Of a stretch of DNA of 64,000 bases, positions 1 to 23,435 are shown piece by piece (the stretch's first letter is position 1; each line of letters opens with the position of its first letter). The stretch is taken from NCBI GenBank assembly GCA_963719505.1, contig CAVRCF010000002.1:224001-288000 (forward strand), given 5' to 3'. This DNA is from Halobacteriovoraceae bacterium. Its GTDB lineage: Bacteria; Bdellovibrionota; Bacteriovoracia; Bacteriovoracales; Bacteriovoracaceae. Position numbers and translations under genes: made by a program. Under the pieces are notes generated by a model. That model did no database searches. It saw nothing but the letters and a program-made list of their open reading frames with translations, and had not been told where the DNA came from.

Positions 1-1
1 T

Positions 2-2520: not shown

Positions 2521-2618
2521 GTATGTGTTCTAAAACTTAATATGCAGTTTATATTGTGAAATAACCTTACTTATATGTTAAATATTGAATTTATATGTTT
2601 TTCTAGTATTATTGACAC

Positions 2619-2984: not shown

Positions 2985-3023
2985 TTTAATTAAAAAATTT
3001 TAATATTTAACTAGGAGAACGAA

Positions 3024-3806: not shown

Positions 3807-3815
3807 GGAGAATAA

Positions 3816-4175: not shown

Positions 4176-4176
4176 T

Positions 4177-4515: not shown

Positions 4516-4548
4516 TTCATATTTACTATCCTCGGTTGTTCATATAAT

Positions 4549-4565
4549 ATACTGGGGTATAGTAT
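4549..4565. promoter_or_regulatory. RcnR/DmeR/FrmR-type operator
   Basis: ATACT-GGGGTAT-AGTAT inverted repeat around a G-tract, just upstream of the repressor start. Confidence 0.65.
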
Positions 4566-4576
4566 GTGGAGGTGGA

Positions 4577-4855
4577 ATGGCTCATATTTCTGAAGACAGA
4601 ACAAAGATTAAATCGAGAATAAAAAAAATTAAGGGCCAACTCGAAGCGGTTGAGCGTGCTTTAGATAATGGTAAGGAGTGCTTCACCGTTTTACAGACTC
4701 TTTCTGCTTGTAGAGGTGGGCTTAATGGACTTATGGGGGAATTAATTGAAGGGCATGTTAAAGAACATGTTATGAAAAATCCTACAGCTCCTAAAACACC
4801 ACAGGATAAATCTGCACTAGAGTTAATTAAATTAATGAAAACATATTGGAAGTAA
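4577..4855 (+). CDS. dmeR: CsoR/RcnR-family metal-sensing repressor (DmeR-like)
   Basis: MAH start after GGAGG; RIKKIKGQLEAVERAL..C..VLQ...GLMGELIEGHVKEH. Confidence 0.8.
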   Translation: MAHISEDRTKIKSRIKKIKGQLEAVERALDNGKECFTVLQTLSACRGGLNGLMGELIEGHVKEHVMKNPTAPKTPQDKSALELIKLMKTYWK

Positions 4856-4867
4856 GGATAAGCAATT

Positions 4868-6111: not shown

Positions 6112-6420
6112 TCAACCTCCGCCACCATCTTGTCCGCCAGAAAATGCTCTTACTGTTGATAAATCTAAATTTATACCATTGCTAAACTCAACATTTAATA
6201 AGTTAAGATTGCCTGGTATTTCAATAAATCCATTTCGAAGCTGAACAGAAGGTTCTTTTACTAATTCAGCCAAACTCAGTATTTCTCTGCTTGATGTTTC
6301 AACAGATTGAATTTTTCCTGCCTCTAGTAAAAGCTTTGTCGGTTTTTTGATACTCTCTAAGCTTTGTCCGAAACTAACTGAATAAGAGATAACTGATATT
6401 AATACTAATAATTTTTTCAT
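6112..6420 (-). CDS. Small secreted protein with C-terminal GGQDGGGG tail
   Basis: Signal peptide; start overlaps stop of the upstream HTH gene. Confidence 0.65.
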   Translation of the reverse strand: MKKLLVLISVISYSVSFGQSLESIKKPTKLLLEAGKIQSVETSSREILSLAELVKEPSVQLRNGFIEIPGNLNLLNVEFSNGINLDLSTVRAFSGGQDGGGG

Positions 6421-7241
6421 TGTAATACCCTCCTATCATCTTCAAAGCTTTTAAAGTCATCTAGCAGAATAGAGTAAAATATTGGCTCTGTTCTCTGAGT
6501 TGTTTTATCAATATTTACGTCCCTAAGTAAAGAATTTAGTTGGTCTAATGCATTCAAATTTACCATGTCATTATGAAGAATGGCGCTGATAATCTCTTTG
6601 AAATATCTTGTAGCATGATGAATTAATGTTCTTTTTTCTTTGGATATTAATTGTGTACCAAAATATATAAAATTCTTAAGTTTTCCACAGTTTTTATCTT
6701 TATGGTAATTAGAAGAATTTGAAATTTGTTTTCTTAATACATTGAAATTAGGCTTCAACTTTTCAAATTTACTTTTAATATTACCGTTTGTATCAATAGA
6801 TACAATAGACAAAGATTCCATATCAAGAAGAGTTGTAACGCCAGAGTAGCCCATTGACTCTTTAACCTGCTCTACTGTTTTGAAGTATCCAAGTTCAATC
6901 ATATTTGCCAATGCAAAGGTATTGGGATCAGTGAATAATCTTTCTTGATCTTGGTTAATTCTATCTTTAGTAGAAGTGTCTGATAGTAAGTTTAATAGTG
7001 TTGTATTATTTGGCTCGTGCTGATTTATAAGACTAAGGCTAGCTTCTTTTTCAAATAAGAAGTTCATTATTTCTGCAAGTTCTAGTGGTTGAAAATCACG
7101 TTTTTCATTAAATGATCTATTCAAAGTTGAATAGCTTAGAGAAGTATTTCTCTCTATATCCTTTAAGCTTATGGAGTGATCTCTAACATGATTAGAAATC
7201 ATTTCAAAAATAGATGTATTTTCTTGGTTAGATAAATTCAA
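6417..7241 (-). CDS. HTH transcriptional regulator (TIGR02147/DUF4423-like architecture)
   Basis: N-terminal XRE-like HTH (SLKDIERNTSLSYSTLNR), central winged-helix-like segment, ~270 aa. Confidence 0.55.
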   Translation of the reverse strand: MNLSNQENTSIFEMISNHVRDHSISLKDIERNTSLSYSTLNRSFNEKRDFQPLELAEIMNFLFEKEASLSLINQHEPNNTTLLNLLSDTSTKDRINQDQERLFTDPNTFALANMIELGYFKTVEQVKESMGYSGVTTLLDMESLSIVSIDTNGNIKSKFEKLKPNFNVLRKQISNSSNYHKDKNCGKLKNFIYFGTQLISKEKRTLIHHATRYFKEIISAILHNDMVNLNALDQLNSLLRDVNIDKTTQRTEPIFYSILLDDFKSFEDDRRVLQ

Positions 7242-8243: not shown

Positions 8244-8399
8244 ATGAATGAATTTTATTCAAAGATTAAAGAGGATTTTTTAGAGCTTTGCGGTGCAATT
8301 AGTGTTGAAGAGCTTGTCGATAATCATAGAGCAATTGAACTTATTAAAGAAATTGATAACGTTTTGAAGGATGTTTCAATTACAAGTTTATATTTATAA
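8244..8399 (+). CDS. Small hypothetical protein (51 aa, not in ORF track)
   Basis: GAGAGGG RBS; MNEFYSKIKEDFLELCGAISVEEL... Confidence 0.4.
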   Translation: MNEFYSKIKEDFLELCGAISVEELVDNHRAIELIKEIDNVLKDVSITSLYL

Positions 8400-8411: not shown

Positions 8412-8558
8412 ATGACAACAAATATAGAAGAGTTGAGACTGAAGATAGATATATTAGAACAACTACTTTCGAAGAAAGAACTTAAAAGAATATCTGTTTC
8501 TAAAAGATTTAAAAGAATCAGGCGAAAGATTTCAAAATATTTAATGATGAGCTTATAG
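8412..8558 (+). CDS. Small basic hypothetical protein (48 aa, not in ORF track)
   Basis: AGGAG RBS; MTTNIEELRLKIDILEQLL...; stop overlaps RBS of the next gene. Confidence 0.4.
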   Translation: MTTNIEELRLKIDILEQLLSKKELKRISVSKRFKRIRRKISKYLMMSL

Positions 8559-8566
8559 GAGCCAAG

Positions 8567-10457
8567 ATGAAAGTAATTTTAAATTTAATATTAATAATAA
8601 TTGTTTGCTCGTGCTCTTTTAAGTCAAACGATAACGACAAGAAGAATGCCAAAGTAGAGCTGATTACAAGTGATTTTGGCGGAGATGACTTTGATGGAGA
8701 TAGAATTAACAATAATGATGAGGTTTTGTTAGGACTTGATCCGTATGTGGCAGATATTCCTAAGGTTAAAGCAAATTTTCTGCAAAATTATAGAGTAAAA
8801 GCAATATTTGAAGATGAGAGTGAATTCTTAATTGATACTAAGGTTGCCAGAGATAATCCAGACTTTAAGTATAGAGTTGGAGAGCTTTTTATTAAGCGAG
8901 ATAGTTTGAAAAGTGCTGCTCGTATTGGTCGCTTTTCTGGTGTCTCATGGGGCGAAATTAAACAAAGAGATATTAGTTGGATTCAATTCCCTGATATCTC
9001 ACCTGAGTATTATTTTTCTAAAGTTAGAGAATACACCTCAAATCATAAAAAAACGAAGTCAGTCTCTATAACAATTGAAAATAATCTCAAGCTCCTAGAC
9101 TCTCAATTATATGATGAGATAAGAGACTTGCAAATTAATTATTATTATTACAGCTATAGCAAAGAAGACTATGTTCTTCTCAAAACACAAGTCGTAGATC
9201 AAGTATTTCAATCAGGTGTCAACGAGAAACTTCCAACTAGATTTAGAAAATGTACCACAAGAACTTCTACAAGATACATTTTTGAGGCACGGTGAGTTCA
9301 TCGTTTCTGAAGTGAAAGATTTCTATATACCTAATCTCAACCTAAAATATAGTGAACTACTAAAATCTGTTAAGGCCAAAACTGTTTCAGTGTACAAATC
9401 TAATCCAATTGAACATGAACTAGACTATGTCGCTGTTAAAGATATTGGCAGTTCATTTTTAGAAATCACGAAGAGACTTTATGGAAAAAATATAAATATC
9501 TCTGATGGACGACTTGAATCAATCGAGCAGTTTAGAAATAACTTAGAAGAGTTTAACAACTTAAGTGAATTAAAAGGAATGAATAAGACTGGAAAGTGGT
9601 TTGTAATGACCAAACAGTTAAAAACTCATTACTTATCTCATCTATATCAAAGTGGAGAAACCATATCTTTATCTTATATTACTGGGAGTGAATTAGCATC
9701 ACAAAGAGCTGAGAAAATCTTTTCTAAAACAGATTCCGTTTATACTGGAGAAAAAGGGATTGTCCATCCTTTGGGGAATATAAATAAAAATTCACAAATT
9801 GAGTTCAGTATTTATCTTAATAGGGAAAGAGGTAAAAAACTTATTCAAGAACATAAGAAATTTTCATTTCGACCTCCAAGTTGCAGAAACTGTACAGGAA
9901 CTAACTGGAGTGTTTGGGCAGAATATAGTGTAAATAGCTTTATTCAATACTACAGAGATTCAGAGGTAGAAAACCTTGATGAAGCTAACAGTATAGTTAA
10001 GGTATTAATTAATAATACTGTGCTCAACCTAGCTGAGTTAGAAAAAGAAAATTTATTACGAAGAGAGTTTAAAGAAGATCAAACTGGCAGTTACATTCAT
10101 TACAGCCTTCATGGTCTCGAGAAATTGGATGCATTCGTTGTCGGAGCTGAAAATATTGTTCAACTTAAATTATCTCCATTGAGTAAAGGTGAGGCCGCTG
10201 AAGGTGTTCAGATTACTAAAATTGGAGGACATAAAGTGAATATTCCTGAGCAAGCGGGATATATCACGTACCAAATGGCTAGAGATAACAGAACTAAGTT
10301 AGCAGAGACTGGATTACATTTTGATCATTGGAACCGACTAGTTGGGTGGGATACGAAAGATCCACAGGGATTCACACCTCAATTGGGAAAAATTCAAAAG
10401 TACTGGAGAGGCATAGTCGTAGATATTATTGGGACAATTAACAACAATTATAACTAG
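8567..10457 (+). CDS. Large lipoprotein with DxDGD Ca-binding motif, possibly binary-toxin-B/PA-like (one frameshift near 9230)
   Basis: Lipobox-like VCSC; DFDGDRINNNDE...GLDPYVADIP; ORFs 8567-9295 and 9216-10457 overlap and read as one gene. Confidence 0.6.
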
Positions 10458-10466
10458 GAGATAGAT

Positions 10467-10724
10467 TTGAATCTACTTATTACACTTTATTTATTTATGA
10501 ATGAAAACGTATGGGCCAGAAGCATAAAGGCAACAGCGGATAGGCTTGGAAGTGAAGCAAAAAACATCGGTCTGTCCGTGGGGTTATTTGGTCTCGCTGT
10601 GGCAGGAATCTACTTAACTCTAGGTAAGCAGGATGCCAGTACTAAAATTACTCAGGCAGGGCTTGGATTATTAGTAATCGTAATGTCTCCAAGTATTGTT
10701 AGTTTCATAAAGGGAGTAGCATAA
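10467..10724 (+). CDS. VirB2/TrbC-like conjugative pilin
   Basis: 85 aa, leader plus two hydrophobic helices, first gene before VirB3/VirB4. Confidence 0.7.
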   Translation: MNLLITLYLFMNENVWARSIKATADRLGSEAKNIGLSVGLFGLAVAGIYLTLGKQDASTKITQAGLGLLVIVMSPSIVSFIKGVA

Positions 10725-10981
10725 TGCAAAAATATCCTAAATTTCTAAATCAAGGCCCTAAATTTTTTGGGCTTAGTTTCCTAGATATAGTTATCTTTTG
10801 CTTAATGACATATCTGGGAGCTTTCTTAGACCTTAATCCAATTGTAACTCTTATTTTAAGTGCATCAACAATCTTTGTGATTCAAGCCTCTAAGAAGTAT
10901 TTTGATTTTATAGGATATTTGAATTCATCAAGGACGAAAACTCTTTCATGGATGAAAGATCTTGAAGGGAGGGAGCTATGA
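10724..10981 (+). CDS. VirB3/TraL-like membrane protein
   Basis: YPKFLNQGPKFFGL plus 2 TM; position between pilin and VirB4. Confidence 0.65.
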   Translation: MQKYPKFLNQGPKFFGLSFLDIVIFCLMTYLGAFLDLNPIVTLILSASTIFVIQASKKYFDFIGYLNSSRTKTLSWMKDLEGREL

Positions 10982-12841
10982 AGTTCCCTCTCTTTGAGAC
11001 AATTGATAATAAGCTAGTATCTCTAACAGGTGAAACTAGTTATCTTTGGAAGCTTACTCCTCCTGATTTAGAGCAAGTTGAAGATAAGAACTCTTATTAC
11101 AGCTCTATAGAAGAGAGTATCATCTTAAATAAGACTGAATGGGCCAAGTTTTATCATATAGACGGACAGCATTGGTTTAACTCAAAAGAAGAACTTAAAA
11201 ACCCTAATATAAGCTCAGAAGTAGAACTCAATCCATTATCTATTCTTTTTAAAGAAGCTAACTCGGAAATAGAGCTATTTGATAATTACTTTGTTTTAAA
11301 TAACAGGTTCTACCAATTGTTATCTGTTGAAACCTTTATGGATCAGATTAGTATTACTGATCTTGAAAATTGTAACTTTTGTTTGATGTTTGAAAAAATC
11401 AAAGCTAATACGGCAAAAAATAAACTGCAACTCAATAGACGTATGCACTTTTCATCAACTTTAAAGAACATAAGAGATATCGAATCCGAAAAGTCATACC
11501 AAGAGTCAGAGGACTTACTTGAAAGTGTAATTACTGGTGAAACAGAAGTTTATAAATCAGAGATGTTCTTTATTGTTGATGGAGTAACGAAGAAAGACTT
11601 AGATGATCAAATCAAAAGAACTAATCGAATATATTACCTCTTTAAATGGAAAACTAAGAATAGAAGGAAGAGGACTTAGTTTCTTTTTAAATTCGATTAT
11701 TCCTGGTGTAAGGCCAAGTCTAAAGAGACATAAGCTTATGCCTTCGACTTATATGAGTGAATTAATTCCCTTAAGTTGTGAAGAGGTAGCTAGTAAAGGA
11801 ATGAAGCTAACTTCAAGAAAAGGGAATCCAGTAGCTTTTAACTTATTTGATAATAAAGCCACTAACTACAATATTCTTATCACTGGAACCTCTGGACAAG
11901 GAAAGTCCATGATCGCTAACAAGCTAATCAAAGAAGAGTTAGAAAGTGGATCTAAAGGAATAATTCTAGATTTAGGAAACTCATTTAAAAAGAATACGCT
12001 TTTTCATCGTGGAGCCGTCTTTAGTGAAAAGTTTAATCCTTTTCAGTTCAAAAATCCAGTGTATCTAAAAGAGTTTATCATTTCTGTGACAGGTTATGTT
12101 TGGGATAGAAAAGAAGCAGGTAAGCTTTATGAGTCTATCAAAGAGAATATCGATAAAGCAGGTAACTTCAACGAACTTATTGCTCTTCTAGATAATGAGA
12201 TAGGAGATATAAAGTACTACTTCTCTGAAATAGAACAGTTCTTCACAGATGAGGATATCAAACTGAATGATCTAACTTACTGTGACTTAACTATTTATCC
12301 AGAAATAATAAAATCACCTTTGATGGTCTATTTGGTTGAGTACTTTAAGCAGTTAGAAGGTAAGAAGATCTTTGTCTTTGATGAATGCTGGGGACTTCTT
12401 AAAAATAATGCAGATTACATCGCTGAGTGCTTTAGAACCTTTAGAAAGCATAATGCCAGTGCTATTGCGATTTCTCAAAACCTTGATGATTTCAGCGAAA
12501 CTCAGCTAGGCCGAGTAATAATTCAAAATACATACTATAAGTTTTTGTTTAAGCAAAATATTGGAAAGACTCCATTTGTTTCAGATTTTCAACTCGACCT
12601 TCTTGATACTGTTAAATCTAATAGAGGGGAGTATTCAGAGTTTCTTATGCTCAGTGAAGAGATTCAAAAAATAATTCGATATTACTCGTCTGCACTTGAA
12701 TATGAACTCTTCACTTCAAGTAAAAGAGATAATGATCAAATTGAAAAGTACTTTGAAGAGAAGGGGAAGTATTTAGACTTTGATATGGCATTTAGGAACT
12801 ATACAAAAATTAAATACCCACATTTTATGGAGGAGCTATGA
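10978..12841 (+). CDS. virB4: VirB4/TraC-family ATPase (frameshift near 11620)
   Basis: Walker A GTSGQGKS, ILDLGNS, Walker B VFDECW, FRTFRKH, ISQ. Confidence 0.85.
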
Positions 12842-13494
12842 AGAAAGAACTTACAGTTTGTTTATTGGCCTCAATACTTAATAAACCAGTATCCGCTTCT
12901 ATGTTTGGTGAAGAAACAGCAGTACTTATTGAAATAGCTACAACAACAGCGACTCAACTTAATGAGCTTGAAAAGTTAGTTTCTAATGCTGAAAAGTACA
13001 CTAAACAGATGCAAAAATATAATGAGTTGTTTCAGGATCAATACTTCAGGGCAGAAAGAATTCTATTTGTAGCTGAGTCTTTAGCTGCAAAAAAAGAAGC
13101 TGCCAACTTAGGAGAGCTTAACTGGGCGATTAGAGAACTTAAATACTCAATGAGTGAGCTTAAAAGTCTTATGAATGAGTATAAAGATATCAAAAATAAT
13201 GAAGATAAGACTAAGTATCAGGTTAAAGAACTTAAGAAGATTAATGAAAAGAAATCAAAACTTGCAATTCATCAGATCAAAAGTTCAGCGGGTGCAAAAA
13301 CAACAGGAAGAGCAACACAGTTAACAGCTAGAAATACAGCTCTTATTTATGAGCAGAATATTGAAATGCATAATACTCAACTTGAGATTTTAGAAAAGAT
13401 GTCTACGAGTAATAGATTATTAGCTGAACAATTAGAGACCGAAAGATTTAAACAGATACAAAAAGAGAAATCTTATGGAGTAGTCAAAAAATGA
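12838..13494 (+). CDS. VirB5/TrbJ-like coiled-coil T4SS protein
   Basis: Signal peptide, helical coiled-coil, position between VirB4 and VirB6. Confidence 0.55.
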   Translation: MKKELTVCLLASILNKPVSASMFGEETAVLIEIATTTATQLNELEKLVSNAEKYTKQMQKYNELFQDQYFRAERILFVAESLAAKKEAANLGELNWAIRELKYSMSELKSLMNEYKDIKNNEDKTKYQVKELKKINEKKSKLAIHQIKSSAGAKTTGRATQLTARNTALIYEQNIEMHNTQLEILEKMSTSNRLLAEQLETERFKQIQKEKSYGVVKK

Positions 13495-14753
13495 ATATTC
13501 TAAAAGATATGCTTTTGATCTCAGATCCATCAGTCTTAAAGCTTTATAAAGAGTTGATTGCTATATCAGGATACTTTATAGCACCTGTATTCACTGTTGC
13601 ACTAGTTATTGAGTACCTTGGAGAGATGAACTTTGCAGGTGTACTTAAGAAGCTATTGATAATTGTTGTTTTTATGGGAGCTTTTTATAACGTTCACACT
13701 AAAGCAGTTGATATCTCTCTTATAACAGCTTCAAAGACATTAAAACGAATTAGTCCAAGAAATCTATTTGTTAAGAAATGGTTTAAAGTAAAAGTTAAAA
13801 CGAAAAAGAAAAGCTCTTGGAGTTCGTTAGAAGCATTTGCTATTCCAAATTTGAATGATCTTGTAGCAACTTTATTTTTTGTTCTCTCAAAAGTCTTTAT
13901 TTGGCTTTTAAAGCTTATTTATTCAAGCGTATATCACTTAACTTATATATTCGCTGGATTTACGGCAATCATGTACTTCTTAGGTTGGACTAAAGATGCG
14001 CTCAAGGGAACTATCCAAGCGAGTCTTTGGTGCATGATCTTGCCTTTTGTAATTGTCGCTATTTTAGGTCTAGTAGGGAACTCAATGGATAATAGTGCAG
14101 CAGTTGGTGAAGTCGCATTTGCAAGTATCAATAACCTTGTGTGGCTCTTTGGAGTGACACTACTTCTACTCATTTCTCCATTAATTACTTATGGGATGAT
14201 TAAAGGTGATGGAATTCATAGCGCTGGAGCTAAAATGGGATCAATGATGGTTAGTTCAGGTACTCATGCCTTATCAATGCTTCCAATGGTTACTCGTTTT
14301 GGACAATCTAGTAAGAAAACATTTAAAAAAGGTAAGAACGGACTCAATAAAGCGACTAGAAGTATTAGTCAGCTAAGAGATAGTAAATCTCAATCCTCTT
14401 CAAAGCTCTCTAACTTAAAGAGCAATAGATTTGCTTCAAGTAATCAAAAATCGAGACTAAGCAGCAAGGACAGTACTTTAAAAAGTGACAAGACTCAAAC
14501 TAATAAAGCTTCTAAATATAGTACTCAAAAAGACAGCAGTAGGTTTGAAATTAAATCCAATAAATCGGATCAAAGATCTAATACTGCTAAGAGTAGCAAA
14601 GAAAAGCTAACAGATAAGAGGATGGATTCAAAAGTTAAAAACTCTAGTCGAGACATCAGTAAGAATACTGTGGATAAAAGAACAATAAAAAGTAAGTCCA
14701 CTAAAGAGATAAGTAATAGAAGAGATCGAGGAGGTAAGCGTGAGTTACGATGA
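13491..14753 (+). CDS. VirB6/TrbL-like polytopic membrane protein with Ser/Lys-rich tail
   Basis: Several TM helices followed by a low-complexity basic tail; synteny. Confidence 0.65.
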   Translation: MNILKDMLLISDPSVLKLYKELIAISGYFIAPVFTVALVIEYLGEMNFAGVLKKLLIIVVFMGAFYNVHTKAVDISLITASKTLKRISPRNLFVKKWFKVKVKTKKKSSWSSLEAFAIPNLNDLVATLFFVLSKVFIWLLKLIYSSVYHLTYIFAGFTAIMYFLGWTKDALKGTIQASLWCMILPFVIVAILGLVGNSMDNSAAVGEVAFASINNLVWLFGVTLLLLISPLITYGMIKGDGIHSAGAKMGSMMVSSGTHALSMLPMVTRFGQSSKKTFKKGKNGLNKATRSISQLRDSKSQSSSKLSNLKSNRFASSNQKSRLSSKDSTLKSDKTQTNKASKYSTQKDSSRFEIKSNKSDQRSNTAKSSKEKLTDKRMDSKVKNSSRDISKNTVDKRTIKSKSTKEISNRRDRGGKRELR

Positions 14754-15186
14754 TTTTCAAGCAACTTTCATGAAAGAGAATAAAAAACTAAGAATAATGA
14801 TGGCAGTTTCATCTTTGATATTTGTAGCGATACTAGTTTTGTTGATTTTTGAGAAAAAGTACTTTGTATATCAGGGGCATCCAGTTTTTGAAGAAAGGAT
14901 ATTGTCTGAGAGTGTTTGTCTTGAGGGTTTTAAGAGCATTGTTAGCGGTGAACCTGATGATACTACAGTGAGTTCTGGAATTTTGGGTATTCTAAAGAAA
15001 GATCCATTTGAATTAGAGATCTCAAAAGTTCTAGGCCTTAAGTCATTAGAGCAAGGATTTTGTAAAATTATAATAAATTCAAAAGATAAGCTTATGGCCT
15101 TTAAAGTTGGACTTGAAGGAAGTGATGAGAATCCATTTTATTACAAAGTGCTATCAATTGATGAATTAGCATACAAGGGGGAGTAA
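14740..15186 (+). CDS. VirB8/TraE-like bitopic protein
   Basis: Single N-terminal TM, small periplasmic domain ending ENPFYYKVLSI (cf. NPxG of VirB8). Confidence 0.5.
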   Translation: MSYDDFQATFMKENKKLRIMMAVSSLIFVAILVLLIFEKKYFVYQGHPVFEERILSESVCLEGFKSIVSGEPDDTTVSSGILGILKKDPFELEISKVLGLKSLEQGFCKIIINSKDKLMAFKVGLEGSDENPFYYKVLSIDELAYKGE

Positions 15187-15655
15187 ATGACATTTTATAT
15201 ATTAATGAATCAAGTAACGACATTGTTTCTAAGTTTAAACTTACTTACAACGCTTTCGTTTGAATCTGAGGTTATTAGCTTCATGTATGGAGGCAGCGAG
15301 CAGGACGTGTATTTTAAGGTAACCAATAATAGAAAGACTTTAGCGATCAAACCTAAGATTGAAGGAACGCTATCCAATCTTATTAGTTATAACTAAGCAG
15401 AGAAAATATTATTTTGATTTGTCACATAGTGCAAAGAATCCTCATCAATTTGTTGAGGTTAAGCATGGGGTTATAAATCATGCGATGAAAAAGCTAGTCA
15501 CAAAGCCAGATTATGAAATCTTACAAGGAGACTCTTCAATTCTTTATATCAATAGAGGCCGGCCTAAGGTCATAAATGGAAAGCAGGTCAAAACTAAGGA
15601 GTACTTCTCTAAGGGAGTACCACTAATTGTTAATGGCAACAGAGCTTTAAACTAA
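15187..15655 (+). CDS. Short VirB9/TraK-like protein (frameshift near 15380)
   Basis: KTLAIKP..SN/LLVITKQRKYYFDL motif; precedes VirB10. Confidence 0.55.
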
Positions 15656-15672
15656 TTAACTAGGACATCTAA

Positions 15673-16434
15673 ATGAATAAGTATTTTGCAATTATTTTTG
15701 TAATGGGGATTCCTGCGCTTCTTTTTGCAAATGAAGCAAGGATCACTAGATTAAAGAAAAACAAAGTAACTAAAACTACTACCAATAATGGAAGTAACTC
15801 AAGGAGAAGAGAGAATGACATTCTTAAAAAAATGTACGAGCAAAACAAAAAGATTAACGCCCTTCTTAAAAGAAAAAGTGAAGTCCCATATATTTGGGAA
15901 GGACGGTCTAAAATCCTTACTGGACGAGTATTCAAGGGTACTCTTTTAAACTCTATTAATTCAACGAACCTATCTAGTCCTGTTCTTGTTAAAGCGCATC
16001 CAGACCAAGGCTTGGATGTCGGATCTAAGTTCGCATGCTTTGGAACAACTGCTCATAAGAGAGTTCAAGTCATTTGTAATAAGCTTGTTACAAGAAGCAA
16101 TGAACAGTTAATCAATGCTCAAGTTTTAAACATGGATGGATCATCAGGGTTAGTTGGGGAATACGATGACGGTAAAGAAGATTTAATTACAGGCGCGATC
16201 ATTTCTGATTTCACTCAAGGAGTATTATCGGCATCTAAGAGTAGAGTCGTGACAGGTATTGGAGAGCTAGAAGATGCAAGTGTAAAAAACAAAGTATTTC
16301 AAGGTCTTATAAATTCAGGACAAACAACATCAGACATTCTTTTAGAAGATATGAAAAATAAAGAGCCTGTTGTTACTGTCGAAGCTGGAACTCAAGTCTT
16401 GATTTACTTTCAGGAGGCGATAAATGAGATTTAG
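15673..16434 (+). CDS. virB10: VirB10/TrbI-like core-complex protein
   Basis: GTLLNSINS..SPVLV, DGSSGLVG, PVVTVEAGTQVLIYF. Confidence 0.75.
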   Translation: MNKYFAIIFVMGIPALLFANEARITRLKKNKVTKTTTNNGSNSRRRENDILKKMYEQNKKINALLKRKSEVPYIWEGRSKILTGRVFKGTLLNSINSTNLSSPVLVKAHPDQGLDVGSKFACFGTTAHKRVQVICNKLVTRSNEQLINAQVLNMDGSSGLVGEYDDGKEDLITGAIISDFTQGVLSASKSRVVTGIGELEDASVKNKVFQGLINSGQTTSDILLEDMKNKEPVVTVEAGTQVLIYFQEAINEI

Positions 16435-16936
16435 CTTAATTGTATTACTAATAGCATTAACTTCTTGTTCAAGCTTTAAAAGAACTGTTGTTACAGCTGC
16501 ACTGACTGGAGCAATAGTTGGAGCAGCTGGAGGCGCTGCATTTTCACCTGATGAGGAATCTAGAGATAGAAATACCTATTTATTTGGAGTTGCTGGAGCA
16601 TTAGCCGGAGCTGGAGCTGCTTTTCTTTTTAGAGATGAGCCCATGAATAAGAATCTACAAACTCCAATGCTGTTAGATGAAGATAAACAAACACATAGGG
16701 AGGTTCCGTTATTTGATTTTTCACCACAGTTAAAAAATATAAAACCAGAAGTAACATTTAAGCCTGTTAAGAAGTTTGAAGTACCACTTGAAAAACTACC
16801 TAAGTCGCTTGAGGGAAAAGTTAAGAAGCAATACATCATTGAATACGAGGCAGAGGCAAGGACTTTAAATATTGGATCAAGAACGATCCAAATTAGTCCA
16901 TTCAAAGCGTGGGAGCATGTATATGAAGAACAATAA
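16424..16936 (+). CDS. Glycine-zipper lipoprotein of the T4SS operon
   Basis: LTSC lipobox, GAIVGAAGGAA and GALAGAGAA zippers. Confidence 0.65.
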   Translation: MRFSLIVLLIALTSCSSFKRTVVTAALTGAIVGAAGGAAFSPDEESRDRNTYLFGVAGALAGAGAAFLFRDEPMNKNLQTPMLLDEDKQTHREVPLFDFSPQLKNIKPEVTFKPVKKFEVPLEKLPKSLEGKVKKQYIIEYEAEARTLNIGSRTIQISPFKAWEHVYEEQ

Positions 16937-18317
16937 TAAAAGTAACGATCTCGATCTATTTACACCAATAGTTGAGATCTTTCATGAACTTTGCATGATG
17001 GTTGTAGGAATTATAACTGAACTTGCTAAGTATCTATGGAGAAGAATTACTAAGTCACCAGCAGAAGTTAAAAAGATTGAGAGGAAGAGCTTTAAGTAGT
17101 AAAAAATCGACAAAAAGCCTGAGGCCTTAGGAGTAGATACGAGATCTAAGAAAGATATCTTATTAAAAGATATAGACTTCACTAAGCATAGCTTCATTGT
17201 AGGAGCATCAGGTTACGGTAAGACAAATCTTATTAGTATGCTCCAAGAGAATAACTTAAAACAAGATAAACCGATTATCTTTATTGATCCTAAAGGCGAT
17301 ATGGATGCACTTAAGACCTTTAAAAGGCTTTGCGAAAAAAATGGTAAGCCTTGTTATATTTTCTCTGAGCATTATGAAGATTCAATTAGTCTTAACCCAG
17401 TATTAGAGGGATCAGTTAGTCTTGTTAAAAAGAGGATTATGGACTCTCTTGATTGGTCAGAGCCTTATTATAAGAATCAGTGCAAGATAACTCTTTCAAA
17501 AGCTCTTAATAAAATAAAAGAGTGATGGACACAAGTTTACTCTTAAAAGAATCTACGATTATGTATGTGAGCTACAAACTAAAGATAACTTAGGCTTAAT
17601 TGTTCAGCTGCAAGAGATTCTAGAAAGTGATTTTGGTAAAATTTTATCAAGTGATGATGGAATGACATTTTCTCAGATTAGAAAAGAGAGAGCTTGTCTT
17701 TATATTGGACTATCAACTCAAGGCTATGGTGAGATGGCTGTCGGTATAGGAAAGCTATTCTTAAATGAACTTTTCTATAATTCTTACTGCTCTCTTATAG
17801 ATAAGAATTCAAAAGCAAATGCTTTATCTAATCCTATTAGTGTTTATTTTGATGAATTTGGTGCTGTTGTAACCCCTGAGTTCATTGAATTACAAAACAA
17901 ATGTAGAGGTGCTGGTATTGAACTCACGATGGCAGTTCAGACATGCAGCAGACATTAATAGAATCAGATCCTGAGCTTACTCAGCAAGTTGTGGAGAATG
18001 CAAATAATTATTTATCCTAAAGCAAAGATTGGATGAAGGTTCCTCATTTTTCTCATAGTCATATCGGTACAGTTATAACCAAGAAACTTACTTCTCAAAC
18101 AGAGAACGGTGAAGAACAAAGTGCAGGAACTGTAAGAGAAGTTAATGAGCTTATAGTTCATCCAGATATCATAAAGAATTTAAGAATAGGTCAATGTGTA
18201 CTTTTAAGGCAGTCGCCAACGCAAGTTAACTTAATCAACATTAGAAATAGACAGATGGAGGCGATTCAAAAAGTGAATAAGCTTGTTGAAGAAGGAAAGA
18301 TAACTTTAAACTTTTAG
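16923..18317 (+). CDS. virD4: VirD4/TraD-like type IV coupling protein (several frameshifts)
   Basis: Across fragments: HSFIVGASGYGKT, FIDPKGD, YFDEFGA, KCRGAG..MAVQ, VHPDIIKNLRIGQCV. Confidence 0.8.
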
Positions 18318-18324
18318 GGGGAGC

Positions 18325-19052
18325 ATGGAAGTAATTTATCCAACATCAGGGATGCAATTAAATTATTTAGAGCCATTAAAGAAATGGAGGATCTTAGATC
18401 TAAAGAGTTTAATGAGAGAATCAAGATATGAAGCAACTTACAAAGGATTTTGTAAAATGTTGTTAAGGCTTGAACAGAAAAATATTATTGGCTCATTTAG
18501 AGAGCCTTTTTCAGGGAGGAAATATTTGTATTTAACCAAAGAGGGAAATCATTCTCTGGGAGGAAATGCGAATCCTCCATCAATAAGTAGAACTACACTT
18601 GTTCATGATGCAAAAGTTGTTGAGTTAGTTTTAGAGCTTATGAAACTCGAATCTATTTACGGGTTTGAATTAGAGCATCAAATCAGAGATATGAAATCTT
18701 TTGGATCAACTTATCAGATTTGTCCTGATGCAGTGATGTTAGGTCAAAAAGGTAAAAACTAAATTTAAACTAGCAATTGAACTTGAGTTAACTAGAAAGA
18801 CAAAAGAGAAGTACTTAGCAAAAATTGGTCAGTACTTAAGTTCAAGTTATTACGACTTTGTCGTTTATTACTTTCAGAGTCGAGGTGTTATGAATTCTTA
18901 TATGAAGCATATAAAAGAGAAGTACGGTGATGAGTCAGATCGAAAAATACTTATATGTCTTAAATGAAAAACTACTGACCAATAAATTCAAATTTGATGA
19001 ATCAATTGCATTTCATAAAAATAAGGAGGGAAAACTTGAAAACGTATTTTAA
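18325..19052 (+). CDS. Replic_Relax (MOB-L-like) relaxase (frameshifts near 18755 and 18962)
   Basis: wHTH ending YLYLTKEG, TLVHD, ICPDA; shifted frame continues LAIELELTRKTKEKY (PD-ExE nuclease pattern). Confidence 0.7.
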
Positions 19053-19117
19053 AGTAAATAATAGTGTCACCTTGATGGCGACAGCTTGTCTCTTATTAGT
19101 ATCATTGGTGAACAACG

Positions 19118-19264
19118 ATTTTTCCATGCCCTCTAATGTATTGATTTCATAGATCTTTCTCACACTCCGAAAGTGACTCCCTCCCTCTCACGTAAATGTG
19201 GATGGATGGAGTCACTTTCTACGTGCGAGAAGATAATAATATGAAATAGAGGGCATGGAAAAAT
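19118..19264. repeat. ~147-bp nested imperfect inverted repeat (candidate oriT / ssDNA promoter / sso)
   Basis: Perfect 18-bp arms ATTTTTCCATGCCCTCTA / TAGAGGGCATGGAAAAAT enclosing GAAAGTGACTCC / GGAGTCACTTTC. Confidence 0.85.
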
Positions 19265-19294
19265 AGTAAATAATAGGTAATGGAAGGAGAATTA

Positions 19295-19652
19295 ATGGTG
19301 GAAGAAAAGAATAAAAAAAGAGGAAGAAGACCAAAAAATGAGAAGAAGGAGTATGTATTAAATAGAGATCAAACTAAGTTTTTTATAGATTACGGAGATA
19401 ATAAAAAAGAATTAGAGGTCGTATTTGATTTGTTGAGTAAGGCCAATAAAAAAAGTTTAGGGCGAGATATAACATTTAAAGACTTAGCCTTATTCGGACT
19501 TTCTAAGATCAACGAAAGAGACATTGAAAAATTCAAGAGTCATCACTAGGCGAGATGGAGAAGGTTCAAAGGGCTTTAGATGAATATAACCTAAAGAGCG
19601 ATAAGAAGCTAAGCCTTGGTGATTCTTTATAAAGAAGCTAAATATTAATTAA
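19295..19652 (+). CDS. Small basic putative DNA-binding protein (frameshifted)
   Basis: KKRGRRPK AT-hook-like start after AGGAG; continuation LGEMEKVQRALDEYN in a shifted frame. Confidence 0.5.
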
Positions 19653-19667
19653 ATTTAAGGAGTCATT

Positions 19668-19977
19668 ATGGAAAATTCATTTGAGCGCTTATTTGTTGGA
19701 CGATTAGGTAAAAATCCAGATCTTAGATACACGAAAAATCAAAAAGCTGTTTGTTATTTATCCGTTGCAACAACTAATGAAGTTGATAAGAAGAACTGAT
19801 TGGCATAGAGTTGTTGTATGGGGAAAGCAAGCAGAGCTTTGTAATCTATATCTTGAAAAAGGAAGAGAAGTCTTTGTTAAAGGAAAAAAAGAACTCAAAG
19901 AGTTTATGACTGGTGAAGGAGATCTCAAAAGGTATAAAGAAATTAATGCTAGTTTAATTGGTTTTCCAAATTTGTAA
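19668..19977 (+). CDS. ssb: Single-stranded DNA-binding protein lacking acidic tail (frameshift near 19795)
   Basis: MENSFERLFVGRLGKNPDLRYT...SVATT joined to TDWHRVVVWGKQAELC..YLEKGREVFVKG. Confidence 0.85.
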
Positions 19978-19988
19978 ATGGAGGTTAA

Positions 19989-20159
19989 ATGGATTCTAAA
20001 TGGCTAAGTACCTCAGAGGCAGAAGCCTATTTAGGTAGAACGAGAAATGCAATTTGGATAATGGTCAGTCGAGGATATATAGAAAAGCGTAAGTGGCATG
20101 GTCGGCTTTATTTTAAAAAGTCTGAGCTTGATAGTTTGATTGAAAACGGTATGTATTAA
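19989..20159 (+). CDS. xis: Excisionase / HTH_17 protein (56 aa, not in ORF track)
   Basis: MDSKWLSTSEAEAYLGRTRNAIWIMVSRG...GRLYFKKSELDSLIE; GGAGG RBS; directly before integrase. Confidence 0.8.
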   Translation: MDSKWLSTSEAEAYLGRTRNAIWIMVSRGYIEKRKWHGRLYFKKSELDSLIENGMY

Positions 20160-20171
20160 TTAAGGAGAGGC

Positions 20172-21260
20172 ATGGCAATAACTGAGAGTTTTAGAAACGG
20201 AAATAAAACATTTAATGTTTATGTGAATTTAAGAAGTAAGACCATGCCTCATATCCGACTTCAAAGAAGACTAAAAGGAATTACGACTAAAACAGAAGCA
20301 GTTAGAAAGGAAAGACTTATAGTAAGAGATTTGAGCTCACAAATTTCAATAAAAGAGGGACATGGGCTAACTTGGAGAATGATCATTAACCGCTGGAGAA
20401 TTTATGCAAGTGATTCAAACTTTATTGAACGTCCATATAATCCAGCAACAATTAAAGACTATTGTTCAATGATGCGTAATTGGACTAGAGAGTGGTTAGA
20501 TAGACCAGCATCTGAATTAACCAAAGGTGAGGGGCGAGCTGTTTTGAAAGAAGTTATTGTTCAAGGAAAAAGTAAAGCCTTTCAAAAAAGACTTAAAAAT
20601 ACTATTAACATGATTTTTAATTGGGCAATTGAAGAGAGACTTGTTCGAGGTTTACATCATAGCCCTGTCTACGGGCTTAAGATAACGGTTAAACAAGATA
20701 AACGACCAGAAATTTTAAAGAAGTTTGAAATAATTTTACTTTTAGAAAAGGCAAAAGAGTTTGAAAATGAGTGCTATCCAGTATGGGTAATTGCTCTGTT
20801 AACTGGAATGAGAAATGGAGAGCTTTACGCTCTTAAGTGGAGTGATGTTGATTTTGCCAATAAACAAATTACAGTTCAAAGATCATTTAACAGAAGAACG
20901 GGGGAGATGAAGTCGACGAAAGCAGGGTATTGGAGAAATGTACCAATATCGAAAGATTTGGAGAGAATATTAAGAAATCTTAATGCTAAAAATAGTGAGT
21001 TTGTTTTACCAAGACTTGTAAATTGGCGTAAAGGTAATCAAGCGAAAATTCTTAAGCTCCATTGCAGAACTATCGGTATACCAGCTGTGAAGTTTCACAC
21101 TTTAAGAGCCTGTTTTGCTACTCAACTTATTGGCTCAGGGGTTGAGCCTATTAAAGTTATGAAGATTTGTGGGTGGCGAGATCTTAAGACTATGGCTTAT
21201 TACATGAGATTGTCTGGGATTGAAGAGAAGGGAGCGACCGAGAACTTGAAGTTTCTTTGA
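20172..21260 (+). CDS. int: Tyrosine recombinase/integrase
   Basis: TGMRNGEL, K, FHTLRA, GW and AYY catalytic motifs. Confidence 0.95.
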   Translation: MAITESFRNGNKTFNVYVNLRSKTMPHIRLQRRLKGITTKTEAVRKERLIVRDLSSQISIKEGHGLTWRMIINRWRIYASDSNFIERPYNPATIKDYCSMMRNWTREWLDRPASELTKGEGRAVLKEVIVQGKSKAFQKRLKNTINMIFNWAIEERLVRGLHHSPVYGLKITVKQDKRPEILKKFEIILLLEKAKEFENECYPVWVIALLTGMRNGELYALKWSDVDFANKQITVQRSFNRRTGEMKSTKAGYWRNVPISKDLERILRNLNAKNSEFVLPRLVNWRKGNQAKILKLHCRTIGIPAVKFHTLRACFATQLIGSGVEPIKVMKICGWRDLKTMAYYMRLSGIEEKGATENLKFL

Positions 21261-21336
21261 ATATTTAGTTCTCTGTAATGTAGTTAACTTCTTTATAGAA
21301 AACAAATTTTTCAATCAAGTGATGTGATAGGTTTAA

Positions 21337-21972
21337 TTACAAGTATATGTGATAATCTAGTTCGGCAGCACTTAATCTAACTGTTATTGCTGGTTTGGTT
21401 ACATCAAAGATCTTTGCAAGGTCATGGTAAATAATGTCGATATCCTCATCGTCAAATTCATCTATTGAATTATACTTAGACTTTCTTTCTTCAATTAACT
21501 CTAACAATTTTGGTTCAAGAATACTTTTGGGAGCTAACAAAGCTCCTCCAAAATAGTCTGCCTGCCATTCAGCACTTCTATATTGCGTATTGGGTAAGAA
21601 ATTAATTATAGATGCATAATCATCTGTTTTTTGTGCTTCTATGAGAGCTTCGACCATCATTTCAATTAATTCCTTGTGGAGTACTAAATGGCCAACTTCA
21701 TGTGCAATTGAAAACCTAGCTCTTTTAGGTTGCTTTTCATATATCGATTCATCAATTCTAAGGATTTTTTTACATGCAACTAAAGCTGTATCAATTTTAC
21801 ATCCAGCCTCCAACCTAGGACAGGGCATAACTCTGTATTTAAATTCATTGTAGAGAAATAGCTCAACTTCAAAAGGATAATCTTTGATACTTTTTCCTTT
21901 ATGAATTTGATCTACGATCGCCTCAATTTCATCTTTTTCTAAGTACTTAACAGTTAGTTTCTCTTTATTCAT
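21337..21972 (-). CDS. ImmA/IrrE family metallo-endopeptidase
   Basis: RFSIAHEVGH, EWQADYF, C-terminal HTH LAKIFDVT. Confidence 0.9.
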   Translation of the reverse strand: MNKEKLTVKYLEKDEIEAIVDQIHKGKSIKDYPFEVELFLYNEFKYRVMPCPRLEAGCKIDTALVACKKILRIDESIYEKQPKRARFSIAHEVGHLVLHKELIEMMVEALIEAQKTDDYASIINFLPNTQYRSAEWQADYFGGALLAPKSILEPKLLELIEERKSKYNSIDEFDDEDIDIIYHDLAKIFDVTKPAITVRLSAAELDYHIYL

Positions 21973-22342
21973 TTTCTTTTGTTACCGTATTTTTGATCCA
22001 TTTAACTAAGTTATCTATTTCATCCTCTTTCAACTGTTGCCCATTAATTTTTCTTAGCATTACAGGCATGTGTTCCATTAGCTCTGAGTCATGAAGATCT
22101 TTGGGAAGAATTTTTACAGCATTTGCTAATGAAACTAACTCGTTTTTTACTTCTTCAGTCCCATCAAATAGTTTAACAGCTTTGTCATAAAACTCTTTAT
22201 CAGTGGGGGGATTAGATACTCCAGTCTCGACTCGACTCCAATTACCCGCATCTAAAGTCATTTCTTTGCAAAACTTTCTTAACGAAAAGCCTGCAGCAAT
22301 TCTTAATTCTGTAAATCTGTCTCCAAACTTGTTATTTGTCAT
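21965..22342 (-). CDS. XRE-family HTH repressor
   Basis: FGDRFTELRIAAGFSLRKFC..GNWSRVETG; ATG at 22342 with GGAG RBS. Confidence 0.85.
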   Translation of the reverse strand: MTNNKFGDRFTELRIAAGFSLRKFCKEMTLDAGNWSRVETGVSNPPTDKEFYDKAVKLFDGTEEVKNELVSLANAVKILPKDLHDSELMEHMPVMLRKINGQQLKEDEIDNLVKWIKNTVTKENE

Positions 22343-22409
22343 AAAACTCCTTTGACGCGATCGCCAATGCGAAGCGTTGGCCACCGCGCGTACTTAATTA
22401 TACATTGGG

Positions 22410-22611: not shown

Positions 22612-22797
22612 ATGAAATTTGATAAAAAACTTGTTACGGCTAATAAGGAAAATATAAGTCTTATGTTTAGTGTTGAAATGTTAAGAGAAACTCAGTTTAT
22701 GCAATCTATAGTTAACACTCTGAAGTTAGCTTACTTTCAGCAGATATTTGGTAAAGATGATTCTGAATATTATTATATTGGTAGGGCGGAGAAATGA
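22612..22797 (+). CDS. Small hypothetical protein
   Basis: AAGGTGG RBS; stop overlaps nuclease start. Confidence 0.45.
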   Translation: MKFDKKLVTANKENISLMFSVEMLRETQFMQSIVNTLKLAYFQQIFGKDDSEYYYIGRAEK

Positions 22798-23435
22798 GAG
22801 TTTTGAGCCTCTTTTATGTGGGACTTCTACCTTATTTCGCTTATTCAGATGTTTTGTCTTTCGGTACTGCTAAAAAGAAATTAGTAAGCGTTTACGCTGA
22901 CTACGATAGAACAATATATTGCGATTGCAAGTTTATTCCTACTACTAAAGAGATCCGTTATGATTCCTGCGGATTTGAGAGTAAGTTATACAGAGGGCAA
23001 AGAAGGAAAATTGAATGGGAACATCTTATGCCTAAATCTTGGTACACTACAAAGCAAGATAGAACTGGCGAAGGTGATATGCATAATTTATATCCAAGTA
23101 TCGGTGTTATAAACGCCGTTAGATCTAATAAGATTTTCAAATATATCGATGGTGAAAAACGCGAGTTTGGAAAATGTGACTTTGAATCTAATTCAGATTT
23201 TGCAGAACCCAGATTTGAGATTAGGGGAGCGATCGCAAGAACTTACCTTTATATGGTTTGGAAATATCCTGTTAAAAAAGATGTTTTGAAGCAGCTGCCA
23301 GATCTTGAAAAATGGTCAATTGGCTCACCCCCAACTAGCTGGGAGTGTAAGAGAAATATGAAAATCAAAAAGGTTCAGGGAAATGATAATCCGTTTGTTA
23401 CATCTCTCTGTCGACGAGGAGTAATACAGATTTGA
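22794..23435 (+). CDS. endA: Endonuclease I (EndA/Dns) family secreted nuclease
   Basis: IYCDC, IEWEH, DMHNLYPSIGVINAVRSN, RGAIARTYLYM, QGNDNPF. Confidence 0.9.
   Translation: MRVLSLFYVGLLPYFAYSDVLSFGTAKKKLVSVYADYDRTIYCDCKFIPTTKEIRYDSCGFESKLYRGQRRKIEWEHLMPKSWYTTKQDRTGEGDMHNLYPSIGVINAVRSNKIFKYIDGEKREFGKCDFESNSDFAEPRFEIRGAIARTYLYMVWKYPVKKDVLKQLPDLEKWSIGSPPTSWECKRNMKIKKVQGNDNPFVTSLCRRGVIQI

Follow-up and report, generated by a model that had tools for sequence, protein, structure and literature searches.

A very compact candidate integrative and conjugative element family with a size-reduced VirB-like secretion system in Bacteriovorax-like predatory bacteria

Introduction

The closest described relatives of the element reported here are conjugation systems of two mating-pair formation (MPF) types, the VirB/Trw systems of type T (MPF_T), such as those of plasmid R388 (NC_028464) and the virB genes of pTiC58, and the type F systems (MPF_F). 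Here we analysed a stretch of 64,000 nucleotides from a Halobacteriovoraceae bacterium (assembly GCA_963719505.1, contig CAVRCF010000002.1, positions 224,001 to 288,000 of the forward strand; hereafter the window, from whose first letter all positions are counted). The window probably carries a member of a group of highly compact integrative and conjugative elements (ICEs) found in Bacteriovorax-like predatory bacteria, and the frame breaks of this copy are most likely errors of the assembly. The backbone of the element consists of 16 genes in ~13 kb, comprising a VirB-ordered, size-reduced type IV secretion system (T4SS) and DNA-processing genes. An initial annotation, made from the letters of the window, had proposed a minimal ICE at 8567-21260; our analysis adds a MOB_C-type relaxase, a covarying hairpin, a left-hand regulator, the swapping of modules and the reading of the breaks as assembly noise.

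With the MPF_T systems the element shares the VirB2-VirB10 gene order, followed by the coupling protein and the relaxase, and its VirB8, VirB9 and VirB10 homologies are recognisable. It differs from them in having neither VirB11 nor a VirB1-type transglycosylase, in a VirB4 that falls outside the TrwK/VirB4 clade, in a relaxase of type MOB_C and not of type MOB_F or MOB_Q, and in an extra 630-aa lipoprotein. Its structural proteins are also only ~40-75% as long as those of R388 (VirB4 ~630 versus 823 aa, VirB8 150 versus 231, VirB9 156 versus 266, VirB10 254 versus 395). The MPF_F systems resemble the element in the absence of VirB11, and their TraC (VirB4) and the SXT-type TraD, a type IV coupling protein (T4CP), are the best curated models for the corresponding proteins of the element. 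The scores, however, lie far below the cut-offs, the F-specific assembly genes are absent, and the element's VirB4 is without ~170-200 N-terminal residues of TraC, the match starting near model position 175.

In size the element stands close to the smallest ICEs. According to PMC5587801, type F ICEs have a median size of 99 kb and type G ICEs one of 80 kb, and the smallest are ICESa1 (~13 kb) and an S. aureus ICE of 11.5 kb, both from Staphylococcus. By these figures the element, with ~13-15 kb and almost no cargo inside its backbone, falls in a similar size class, at the lower size limit of ICEs, and would be unusually small for a diderm host. The smallest ICEs are monoderm (MPF_FA), whereas the element has a diderm, envelope-spanning set of VirB9, VirB10 and outer-membrane lipoproteins.

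MOB_C relaxases include TraX of pAD1 and MobC of CloDF13. With the MOB_C (PF13814) relaxases the element shares a winged helix, a PD-(D/E)xK core with the residues PD...ExE..K, and an adjoining VirD4-type coupling protein. No description of a PF13814 relaxase together with a diderm VirB-like system in a Bdellovibrionota ICE was found in the literature searched. Full-text searches, with supplements outside their scope, returned no description of the element, nor did passage searches of PMC12642874 and PMC12102498.

Results

A conserved row of 16 genes

The genes at 8567-21260 were named from profile searches (Pfam, NCBIfam), tblastn searches with intact homologues and synteny across loci. They form a tight single row of co-directional open reading frames (ORFs) on the + strand, in the order lipoprotein, VirB2 pilin, VirB3-like, VirB4, VirB5-like, VirB6-like, VirB8-like, VirB9-like, VirB10 and a second lipoprotein, followed by coupling protein, relaxase, a hairpin, small basic protein, single-stranded DNA-binding protein (SSB), excisionase and integrase (Table 1). 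ORFs and family matches thus bear out the gene order and co-directionality first proposed for this region. The genes by which an ICE is recognised are all present, namely a VirB4 ATPase with further MPF genes, a T4CP, a relaxase and an integrase at the end of the element.

To survey relatives we ran a pattern scan over one genome per prokaryote species, which yielded 142 candidate stretches, of which 90 were confirmed and 77 were kept as loci (denoted L with a number). Nearly all lie in records of Bacteriovoracaceae, Halobacteriovoraceae, Bacteriovorax, Bdellovibrio, Bdellovibrionales or Oligoflexia, and the carriers include the cultured strains Halobacteriovorax sp. CON-3 and Peredibacter starrii. 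The host had been described initially as a probable predatory bacterium, which is reasonable because the records of related loci name Bacteriovoracaceae, Halobacteriovorax and Bdellovibrio. The element can be multicopy, with 4-5 copies in several metagenome-assembled genomes. In every locus long enough to show them the 16 genes are alike in order and spacing, and from the lipoprotein start to the integrase stop the row spans 12,531-13,376 bp (median 13,037; 35 loci with both ends).

The genome of the window holds a second, largely open copy of the element on contig C5, in which VirB4 is open at 628 aa. In a sample of 40 relatives, 24 genomes besides that of the window belong to its family, and 6 of these gave strong VirB4 matches with open frames of 626-667 aa. 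Counting the window's own genome, the element is therefore present in 7 of the 25 sampled genomes of the family and is not universal. The 16 sampled genomes of other families gave no strong match, only weak ones to VirB4 genes of ~775-815 aa.

The protein sizes that had been read from the window agree with the medians of the intact homologues (Table 1). Of the 16 genes in the window copy, 7 are distributed over more than one frame. The further statement that the parts are unusually short holds for VirB4, VirB8, VirB9 and VirB10 and fails for the T4CP, which at ~470-495 aa is close to TrwB of R388 (507 aa).

Table 1. Features of the element and its right-hand neighbour in the window, with the median protein length among the loci surveyed
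Feature	Position	Strand	Properties in the window	Median length across loci (aa)
Divergent regulator (probable control gene)	6417..7241	-	274 aa; blastp L082 1.2e-12, L066 5.3e-6	
Small conserved ORF	8244-8399	+	51 aa; relatives at same place in 10 loci; cluster of 21 loci	
Small conserved ORF	8412-8558	+	48 aa; relatives at same place in 3 loci; cluster of 6 loci	
Large lipoprotein	8567..10457	+	~630 aa; N-terminal TSP3 calcium-binding repeat; variable module	635
VirB2/TrbC-type pilin	10467..10724	+	85 aa; two hydrophobic segments	87
VirB3-like small membrane protein	10724..10981	+	85 aa; named from position and one transmembrane-like segment only	88
VirB4 ATPase, short	10978..12841	+	~625-635 aa when intact; split	635
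VirB5/TrbJ-position secreted helical protein	12838..13494	+	218 aa; Atlas lead only	224
VirB6-position polytopic membrane protein	13491..14753	+	420 aa; Ser/Lys-rich tail	455
VirB8-like protein	14740..15186	+	148 aa; N-terminal transmembrane helix and NTF2-like domain	150
VirB9-like protein	15187..15655	+	156 aa when intact; split	156
VirB10/TrbI	15673..16434	+	253 aa; PF03743 6.3e-13; N-terminal transmembrane segment	254
Glycine-zipper lipoprotein	16424..16936	+	170 aa; lipobox LTSC; Gly-zipper and TagQ-like matches	174
VirD4/TraD-type coupling protein	16917..18317	+	471-495 aa when intact; broken	495
MOB_C / Replic_Relax putative relaxase	18325..18990	+	~245 aa when intact; winged helix and PD-(D/E)xK nuclease	243
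Inverted repeat/hairpin, candidate origin of transfer	19159..19229	+	inner stem 19169-19180 / 19208-19219	
Hairpin outer stem	19159-19165 / 19223-19229	+	loop pyrimidine-rich	
Small basic protein	19280..19632	+	~126 aa when intact; N-terminal KKRGRRPK motif; 51 loci	126
Short SSB	19668..19977	+	~102 aa; OB fold only; PF00436 2.7e-12	102
Excisionase-type HTH_17 protein (Xis)	19989..20159	+	56 aa; PF12728 1.5e-9	88
Tyrosine integrase (Int)	20172..21260	+	362 aa, intact; PF00589 2e-20; exchangeable module	381
ImmA-like M78 peptidase and XRE helix-turn-helix pair	21337..22384	-	Peptidase_M78 5.9e-10; HTH_31 1.9e-5	

A short VirB4 outside the reference clades, without VirB11

The absence of VirB11 and of a lytic transglycosylase, as claimed initially, was borne out in the window and in intact relatives. 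No match to a VirB11/T2SSE or transglycosylase family was obtained among the ORFs of the row, either in the window or in the intact copy of L015. In the whole genome nothing scored above the cut-off of TIGR02788 (VirB11), the best matches being ordinary secretion or pilus ATPases far from both copies of the element. Searches of Pfam and NCBIfam for TraH, TraN, TraU, TraW, TraF and TrbC gave no match on any of the 16 ORFs. Since the span of the row is fixed in 35 loci, there is no room in it for VirB11, a transglycosylase or F-specific genes. The synteny survey thus showed that the 16-gene set is constant and that homologous loci do not carry the missing genes; because no locus has VirB11 or a lytic transglycosylase in the row, the family is not a decayed remnant.

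VirB4 is readily recognised as an ATPase of its kind (P-loop_TraG 4.7e-23, TIGR02746 4.8e-43), and its scores lie far below the cut-offs of every class model. The best curated model, TIGR02746 (TraC-F-type), gave 123-147 bits against a cut-off of 567, and TIGR00929, the MPF_T criterion, 59.6-67.9 bits against 643; the curated models used for MPF_G, MPF_B, MPF_FA and MPF_FATA, namely TIGR03744 (15.9 bits), TIGR03783 (27.8-46.3) and NF045971 (36-59), also gave scores far short of their cut-offs. Among 72,556 plasmids the best matches were 21-28% identical and almost all were F-type TraC, and a VirB4 profile reached at most 9e-11 (4ag5) and 8.5e-7 (TrwK) against sequences of the PDB. A profile search of 1.84 billion cluster representatives returned 5,420 matches. 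The first ~100 of these (at least 212.9 bits) were mostly members, 585-680 aa long, of the short-VirB4 family to which the element belongs, plus fragments, and below them followed VirB4 proteins of ~790-925 aa. The latter also fall below every curated cut-off, with TraC-F-type as their best model (206-336 bits), except for one that scored best on VirB4_CagE.

We placed these proteins in a tree of 66 rows, made up of the copy in the window, 19 loci of the family, 34 of the representatives, VirB4 proteins of 4 other Bdellovibrionota and 8 references (TrwK, Ti VirB4, R64 TraU, pCF10 PrgJ and four TraC proteins, from IncF, from IncC and from one plasmid each of Pseudomonas and Campylobacter). The short-VirB4 family came out as one clade (SH-aLRT 100) whose stem measures 1.3 changes per column. 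It is distinct from the pair of T references (100), from the F references (99) and from a large group of ~800 aa (96), and PrgJ of pCF10 was placed elsewhere in the tree. The suggestion of a possibly unclassified MPF type is therefore upheld to the extent that VirB4 lies outside the MPF_T, MPF_F, MPF_I and FATA references, in a tree without references for G, B, C and FA. Four proteins of 684-705 aa (P0125, P0126, P0128 and P0141) made up a second group of short VirB4 proteins with its own clade (100), apart from the family, which may represent another reduced T4SS lineage.

Proteins of the transfer machine

Several other components were recognised by profile. The window's pilin matched PF04956 (TrbC/VirB2) with E 2.3e-4, and that of L015, an intact relative, with 9.5e-8; the L015 homologue of the VirB9-like protein matched CagX (2.8e-7) and TIGR02781 (9.1e-9). 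The coupling protein matched TIGR03743 SXT_TraD (9.7e-36), TraG-D_C (2.8e-9) and also TrwB_AAD_bind. The glycine-zipper lipoprotein, kept in 65 loci, is a candidate outer-membrane anchor that may play a VirB7-like role. For the large lipoprotein an intact homologue of 629 aa covered 8603-9232 (frame 2) and 9243-10454 (frame 3) in tblastn; Pfam, NCBIfam and Atlas searches for this lipoprotein yielded nothing but one TSP3 repeat (TSP3_bac 2.9e-6).

The 148-aa protein gave no sequence-level match, and its profile found chance or coiled-coil matches among PDB sequences. Its AF2 model (pLDDT 87.8) gave Z values in VIA-align of 9.3 with TraM of pIP501, 9.1 with Brucella VirB8 and 8.6 with TrwG, and proteins of the VirB8 family made up most of the top 20 structural matches (Z 8.0-9.3), while the Foldseek E-values were weak (0.035 or higher). 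By its predicted fold, an N-terminal transmembrane (TM) helix with a periplasmic NTF2-like domain, we consider this protein VirB8-like.

The remaining small membrane and secreted proteins were placed chiefly by gene order. The VirB3-like gene is kept between the pilin and VirB4 across loci, and the VirB6-like gene is kept in 69 loci, with five TM-like segments in its L020 homologue; neither protein gave a family match. For the VirB5-like protein, Pfam gave no match and a profile found chance or coiled-coil matches only among PDB sequences. Its nearest Atlas clusters (0.95-0.96) are in Bdellovibrionota, one of them automatically named TrbJ family, and a more distant cluster (0.90) has PF07996 in 10%. 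We treat this Atlas evidence as a lead to the VirB5/TrbJ label and not as a test of it.

A MOB_C-type relaxase and a covarying hairpin

The initial annotation had called the gene after the coupling protein a relaxase. A relaxase family is indeed present, and the family match, the fold and the invariant residues correct its type to MOB_C / Replic_Relax. Replic_Relax (PF13814) was matched by 22 of 53 intact homologues at E<=1 (best 3.8e-8), and database relatives, one of them from Peredibacter starrii, carry a precomputed PF13814 assignment and the NCBI name 'replication-relaxation family protein'. An AlphaFold model built on the alignment of 53 sequences (pLDDT 91.1) contains a winged helix resembling that of MarR and, behind it, a nuclease domain, and its top Foldseek matches were FokI (4.9e-4), VC1899, Cdn1, YaeQ and MarR, the first four of which we take to be nucleases of the PD-(D/E)xK type. 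The invariant residues H93 D94, P133 D134 and E151 E153 K157 fit a PD...ExK signature. PF13814 is the MobC relaxase superfamily of CONJscan, found beside VirD4-type coupling proteins (PMC5357655, Table 1). On the modelled fold and its residues the protein is a MOB_C / Replic_Relax protein and not an HUH enzyme, with putative cleavage at an origin of transfer (oriT).

The hairpin reported after the relaxase gene, which lies between it and the gene for the small basic protein, is real, as judged by its folding score as single-stranded DNA and by compensatory changes. The window copy folds with -20.6 kcal/mol (z -6.59), a value that none of 200 shuffled sequences equalled. Of 51 loci, 41 have a perfect repeat of 8-24 bp with a loop of 18-41 nt between these two genes, and a pattern search found the TGAC...GTCA core there in 44 of the 51. 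When the 41 sequences were aligned, 98% of the cells in the 12-bp inner helix were paired. Four of the pairs are invariant (TGAC/GTCA) and 8 of the 12 have changed on both sides, giving a covariation of 0.518 versus 0.187 for shuffled alignments, with 0 of 500 shuffles reaching the observed value. Sliding the partner strand by 1-3 columns lowered the pairing to 36-47%. The loop holds a conserved pyrimidine tract. These features fit an origin of transfer as well as an operator bound by a dimeric protein.

Downstream of the hairpin, the small basic protein gave no family match and is a candidate DNA-binding accessory protein. The SSB of L015 matched PF00436 at 6.7e-22.

Ends of the element and exchange of modules

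In 27 loci a further gene, read from the opposite strand, stands 0.4-1.7 kb before the lipoprotein gene, and the window's ORF at 6417-7241 belongs to this family. Some members of its cluster match HTH_3 (XRE/Cro; 3.5e-9 and 1.6e-7), and the window's own 274-aa regulator has no Pfam match. The ORF at 6417-7241 is probably the left-hand control gene of the element. Because this regulator and the two small ORFs are conserved to the left of 8567, the element starts further left than initially drawn, probably at or left of ~6.1-6.4 kb; of the extent first given, the gene row stands and the left start is moved to include the divergent regulator.

Comparisons between close relatives bear on both ends. 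On the right, the similarity of L075 and L083 stops at the int stop codon. On the left, similarity stops ~10-470 nt upstream of the lipoprotein gene in four close pairs, and in other close pairs it starts only inside or after that gene, or the end lies beyond the contig. The large lipoprotein is 27-30% identical between loci whose T4SS proteins are 93-100% identical (L075/L083, L018/L083 and L018/L075), and Int is 38-47% identical where the T4SS proteins are 91-98% identical (L018/L083, L018/L075, L061/L062 and L045/L054). On these identities, the lipoprotein and xis/int modules are swapped between otherwise near-identical elements. Metagenomic relatives of the window copy, which leave xis/int uncovered, are also divergent in the lipoprotein gene.

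Searches for direct repeats in the window copy and 36 related loci, aimed at attachment (att) sites, returned only 12-15-mers at chance level, and no att repeat of at least 12 nt was found for the window copy; a short one may be hidden by assembly errors. In L053 and L059 a tRNA-Met gene lies ~100-125 nt past the int stop (L053:16522-16598, L059:20741-20817), and short tandem repeats that resemble arm-type sites directly follow int. A search for tRNA fragments in these two loci gave nothing above chance, and no tRNA gene was detected in the window. DNA searches with both flanks in 12 relatives found no adjacent flank pair that would mark an empty site, and in none of the 12 did the right flank have a DNA relative. 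Only the regulator and the small ORFs among the flanking genes of the window copy recur next to other loci. A promoter and terminator scan gave counts no higher than in shuffled sequence.

Frame breaks in the window copy

The split genes in the window are those for the large lipoprotein, VirB4, VirB9, T4CP, relaxase, small basic protein and SSB. The tblastn alignments change frame at ~9235 (lipoprotein), 11609 (VirB4), ~15370 (VirB9), in three places in the coupling protein, in the relaxase, and at ~19535 (small basic protein) and ~19781 (SSB). For comparison we used Logan contigs from four runs of one study of macroalgae metagenomes, which are 93-97% alike to the window over ~10.4-19.3 kb; at ~19,675-22,000 the four runs gave almost no contig cover. 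The contigs are without one letter of the window at 11607 in VirB4, at 15379/15382 in VirB9, at 17087, 17523, 17944 and 17965 in the coupling protein, at 18708, 18756 and 18949 in the relaxase, at 19182 and 19202, and at nine further sites. Among the differences listed, each is an extra letter in the window. The extra letters of VirB4 (11607) and VirB9 (15379-15382) are absent from contigs of 3 runs, and a same-genus fragment of 86% identity (L097) is without the extra A in VirB9 and has the gene open.

The breaks are not evenly spread. One gap occurs in the contig over 11690-15626 and 16 in the next over 15627-19326, so that they are dense from ~16 kb. There a stretch of 30 kb with low open-frame cover begins (contig C2, 240-270 kb; window ~16-46 kb), which runs far past the element. 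Ten-kb bins with less than 50% of their length covered by open frames of at least 200 aa number 19 of 369 in the genome; a second patch of such bins, at C1:200-230 kb, holds rpoBC. The assembly has 5 contigs with a marker completeness of 83.5%, and in it rpoB is split into at least 4 frame pieces and rpoC into at least 6. As rpoB and rpoC are also fragmented, and the breaks are single extra letters in an error-rich stretch, the frame breaks of the window copy are most likely assembly or sequencing errors and not decay. Such local insertion-dense patches mean that pseudogene calls in the window need caution.

Neighbouring genes

To the left of the element, window positions 1-5806 hold genes for a multicopper oxidase, an ArsP-type permease, HupE/UreJ, a CDF efflux transporter and a repressor resembling CsoR. 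Paralogues of these metal genes, rearranged and with 73-85% nucleotide identity, also adjoin the C5 copy (C5:1052550-1053728 and C5:1073972-1075245), and the metal-handling genes beside both copies could be cargo or the result of repeated accretion at elements. To the right, the M78 peptidase/XRE pair has no relative beside any other locus, and its membership in the element is uncertain. Further right of int lie an endonuclease I and a weak SieB-like protein (22794-23435 and 26211-26840). The whole region right of int, from the M78 peptidase onwards, possibly forms another mobile island. Some loci have a gene for a sigma-54-dependent response regulator upstream of the element, in many cases accompanied by a histidine kinase gene (L051:5651-7015 and L051:2785-4263, with similar genes in 14 and 8 loci).

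Discussion

Our data are best accounted for by a very compact ICE family of which the window holds one copy. Several observations weigh against this account or narrow it. Self-transmissibility, excision and expression are predicted here from the genes, and repeat searches found no att repeats or exact ends for the window copy. The window's own relaxase fragment, too broken for the purpose, had no family match in the Pfam search, and PF13814 was absent from the whole-genome search, which also matched in no control genome. Single-strand nicking is less well established for MOB_C nucleases than for HUH relaxases. The names VirB3-, VirB5- and VirB6-like are the weaker ones, given solely from position, topology or an Atlas lead, and a crude hydropathy scan showed no TM segment in the coupling protein. 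The VirB4 tree was a quick one with long branches and without MPF_G, B, C and FA references, and its deep branches are unresolved. As to the frame breaks, they are much rarer in the C5 copy of this assembly, and the metagenomic contigs derive from relatives, so that they cannot alone tell errors from real mutations.

These last two points bear on whether the window copy is a decaying, non-functional remnant whose frameshifts are real mutations. At least 12 single-base disturbances of frame between 11607 and 19202, further breaks near 9235, 19535 and 19781, and a C5 paralogue with almost all frames open would agree with decay. However, rpoB and rpoC, which are essential, show the same kind of fragmentation, the listed differences are all extra letters with no loss, large deletion or missing gene, the integrase and 8 other genes are open, and the dense breaks begin at ~16-17 kb, where the low open-frame stretch starts that outruns the element. 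We therefore regard decay as improbable. Still less credible, in our view, is that the T4SS serves another role, such as predation-linked delivery of proteins or release of DNA, with the integrase merely marking a genomic island. The hosts are predatory, the large surface lipoprotein is hypervariable and transfer is a prediction, but a coupling protein, MOB_C nuclease, inverted repeat, SSB, Xis and Int always accompany the system, which is multicopy, lies in varied contexts and is found in only a minority of the family genomes sampled.

The question of class is separate from that of function. The row could be a divergent, reduced member of MPF_F or MPF_T, an extreme variant and no new type, which we think rather unlikely. 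The best curated models (TraC-F-type for VirB4, SXT_TraD for the T4CP), the top plasmid matches of VirB4, a VirB2-VirB10 order as in R388 and pTi, and the recognisable VirB8, VirB9 and VirB10 all speak for such a kinship; against it, the VirB4 scores fall far short of the cut-off (123-147 versus 567 bits), the F and T references each form a clade of their own apart from the family, and F-specific genes and VirB11 are missing from the 16 ORFs. A further reading, which we put forward tentatively and at somewhat less than even odds, is that the compact ICE family is an unnamed MPF class and the smallest self-sufficient conjugation machine in a double-membrane cell. It would then have ~10 structural genes, with VirB4 as the sole ATPase of the channel, no VirB11 and no cell-wall hydrolase; its MOB_C relaxase would act on the covarying hairpin as oriT, the 630-aa lipoprotein would set partner specificity or exclusion, and the ~13-kb, cargo-free element would stand at the lower end of the size range of all ICEs.

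For an element that transfers itself, the gene content suggests the following cycle. The regulator would keep the long operon off, and upon induction Xis and Int would excise a circle. The winged-helix PD-(D/E)xK protein, possibly assisted by the small basic one, would bind the TGAC...GTCA inverted repeat and cut at or near it, and the coupling protein would pass the DNA to a channel powered by VirB4 alone. SSB would coat the strand and Int would insert the element in the recipient, while the hypervariable large lipoprotein at the cell surface may act in partner recognition or exclusion.

If self-transfer holds true, the family would represent a minimal conjugation apparatus that occurs naturally in diderm cells, with which one could ask what a T4SS can do without (VirB11 and VirB1, and much of the N-terminus of VirB4 and of VirB8, VirB9 and VirB10). 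It would offer a small machine for structural work and a native genetic tool for predatory bacteria that are hard to manipulate. Current MPF typing would probably miss this lineage, and the conjugative elements of Bdellovibrionota would therefore be under-counted.

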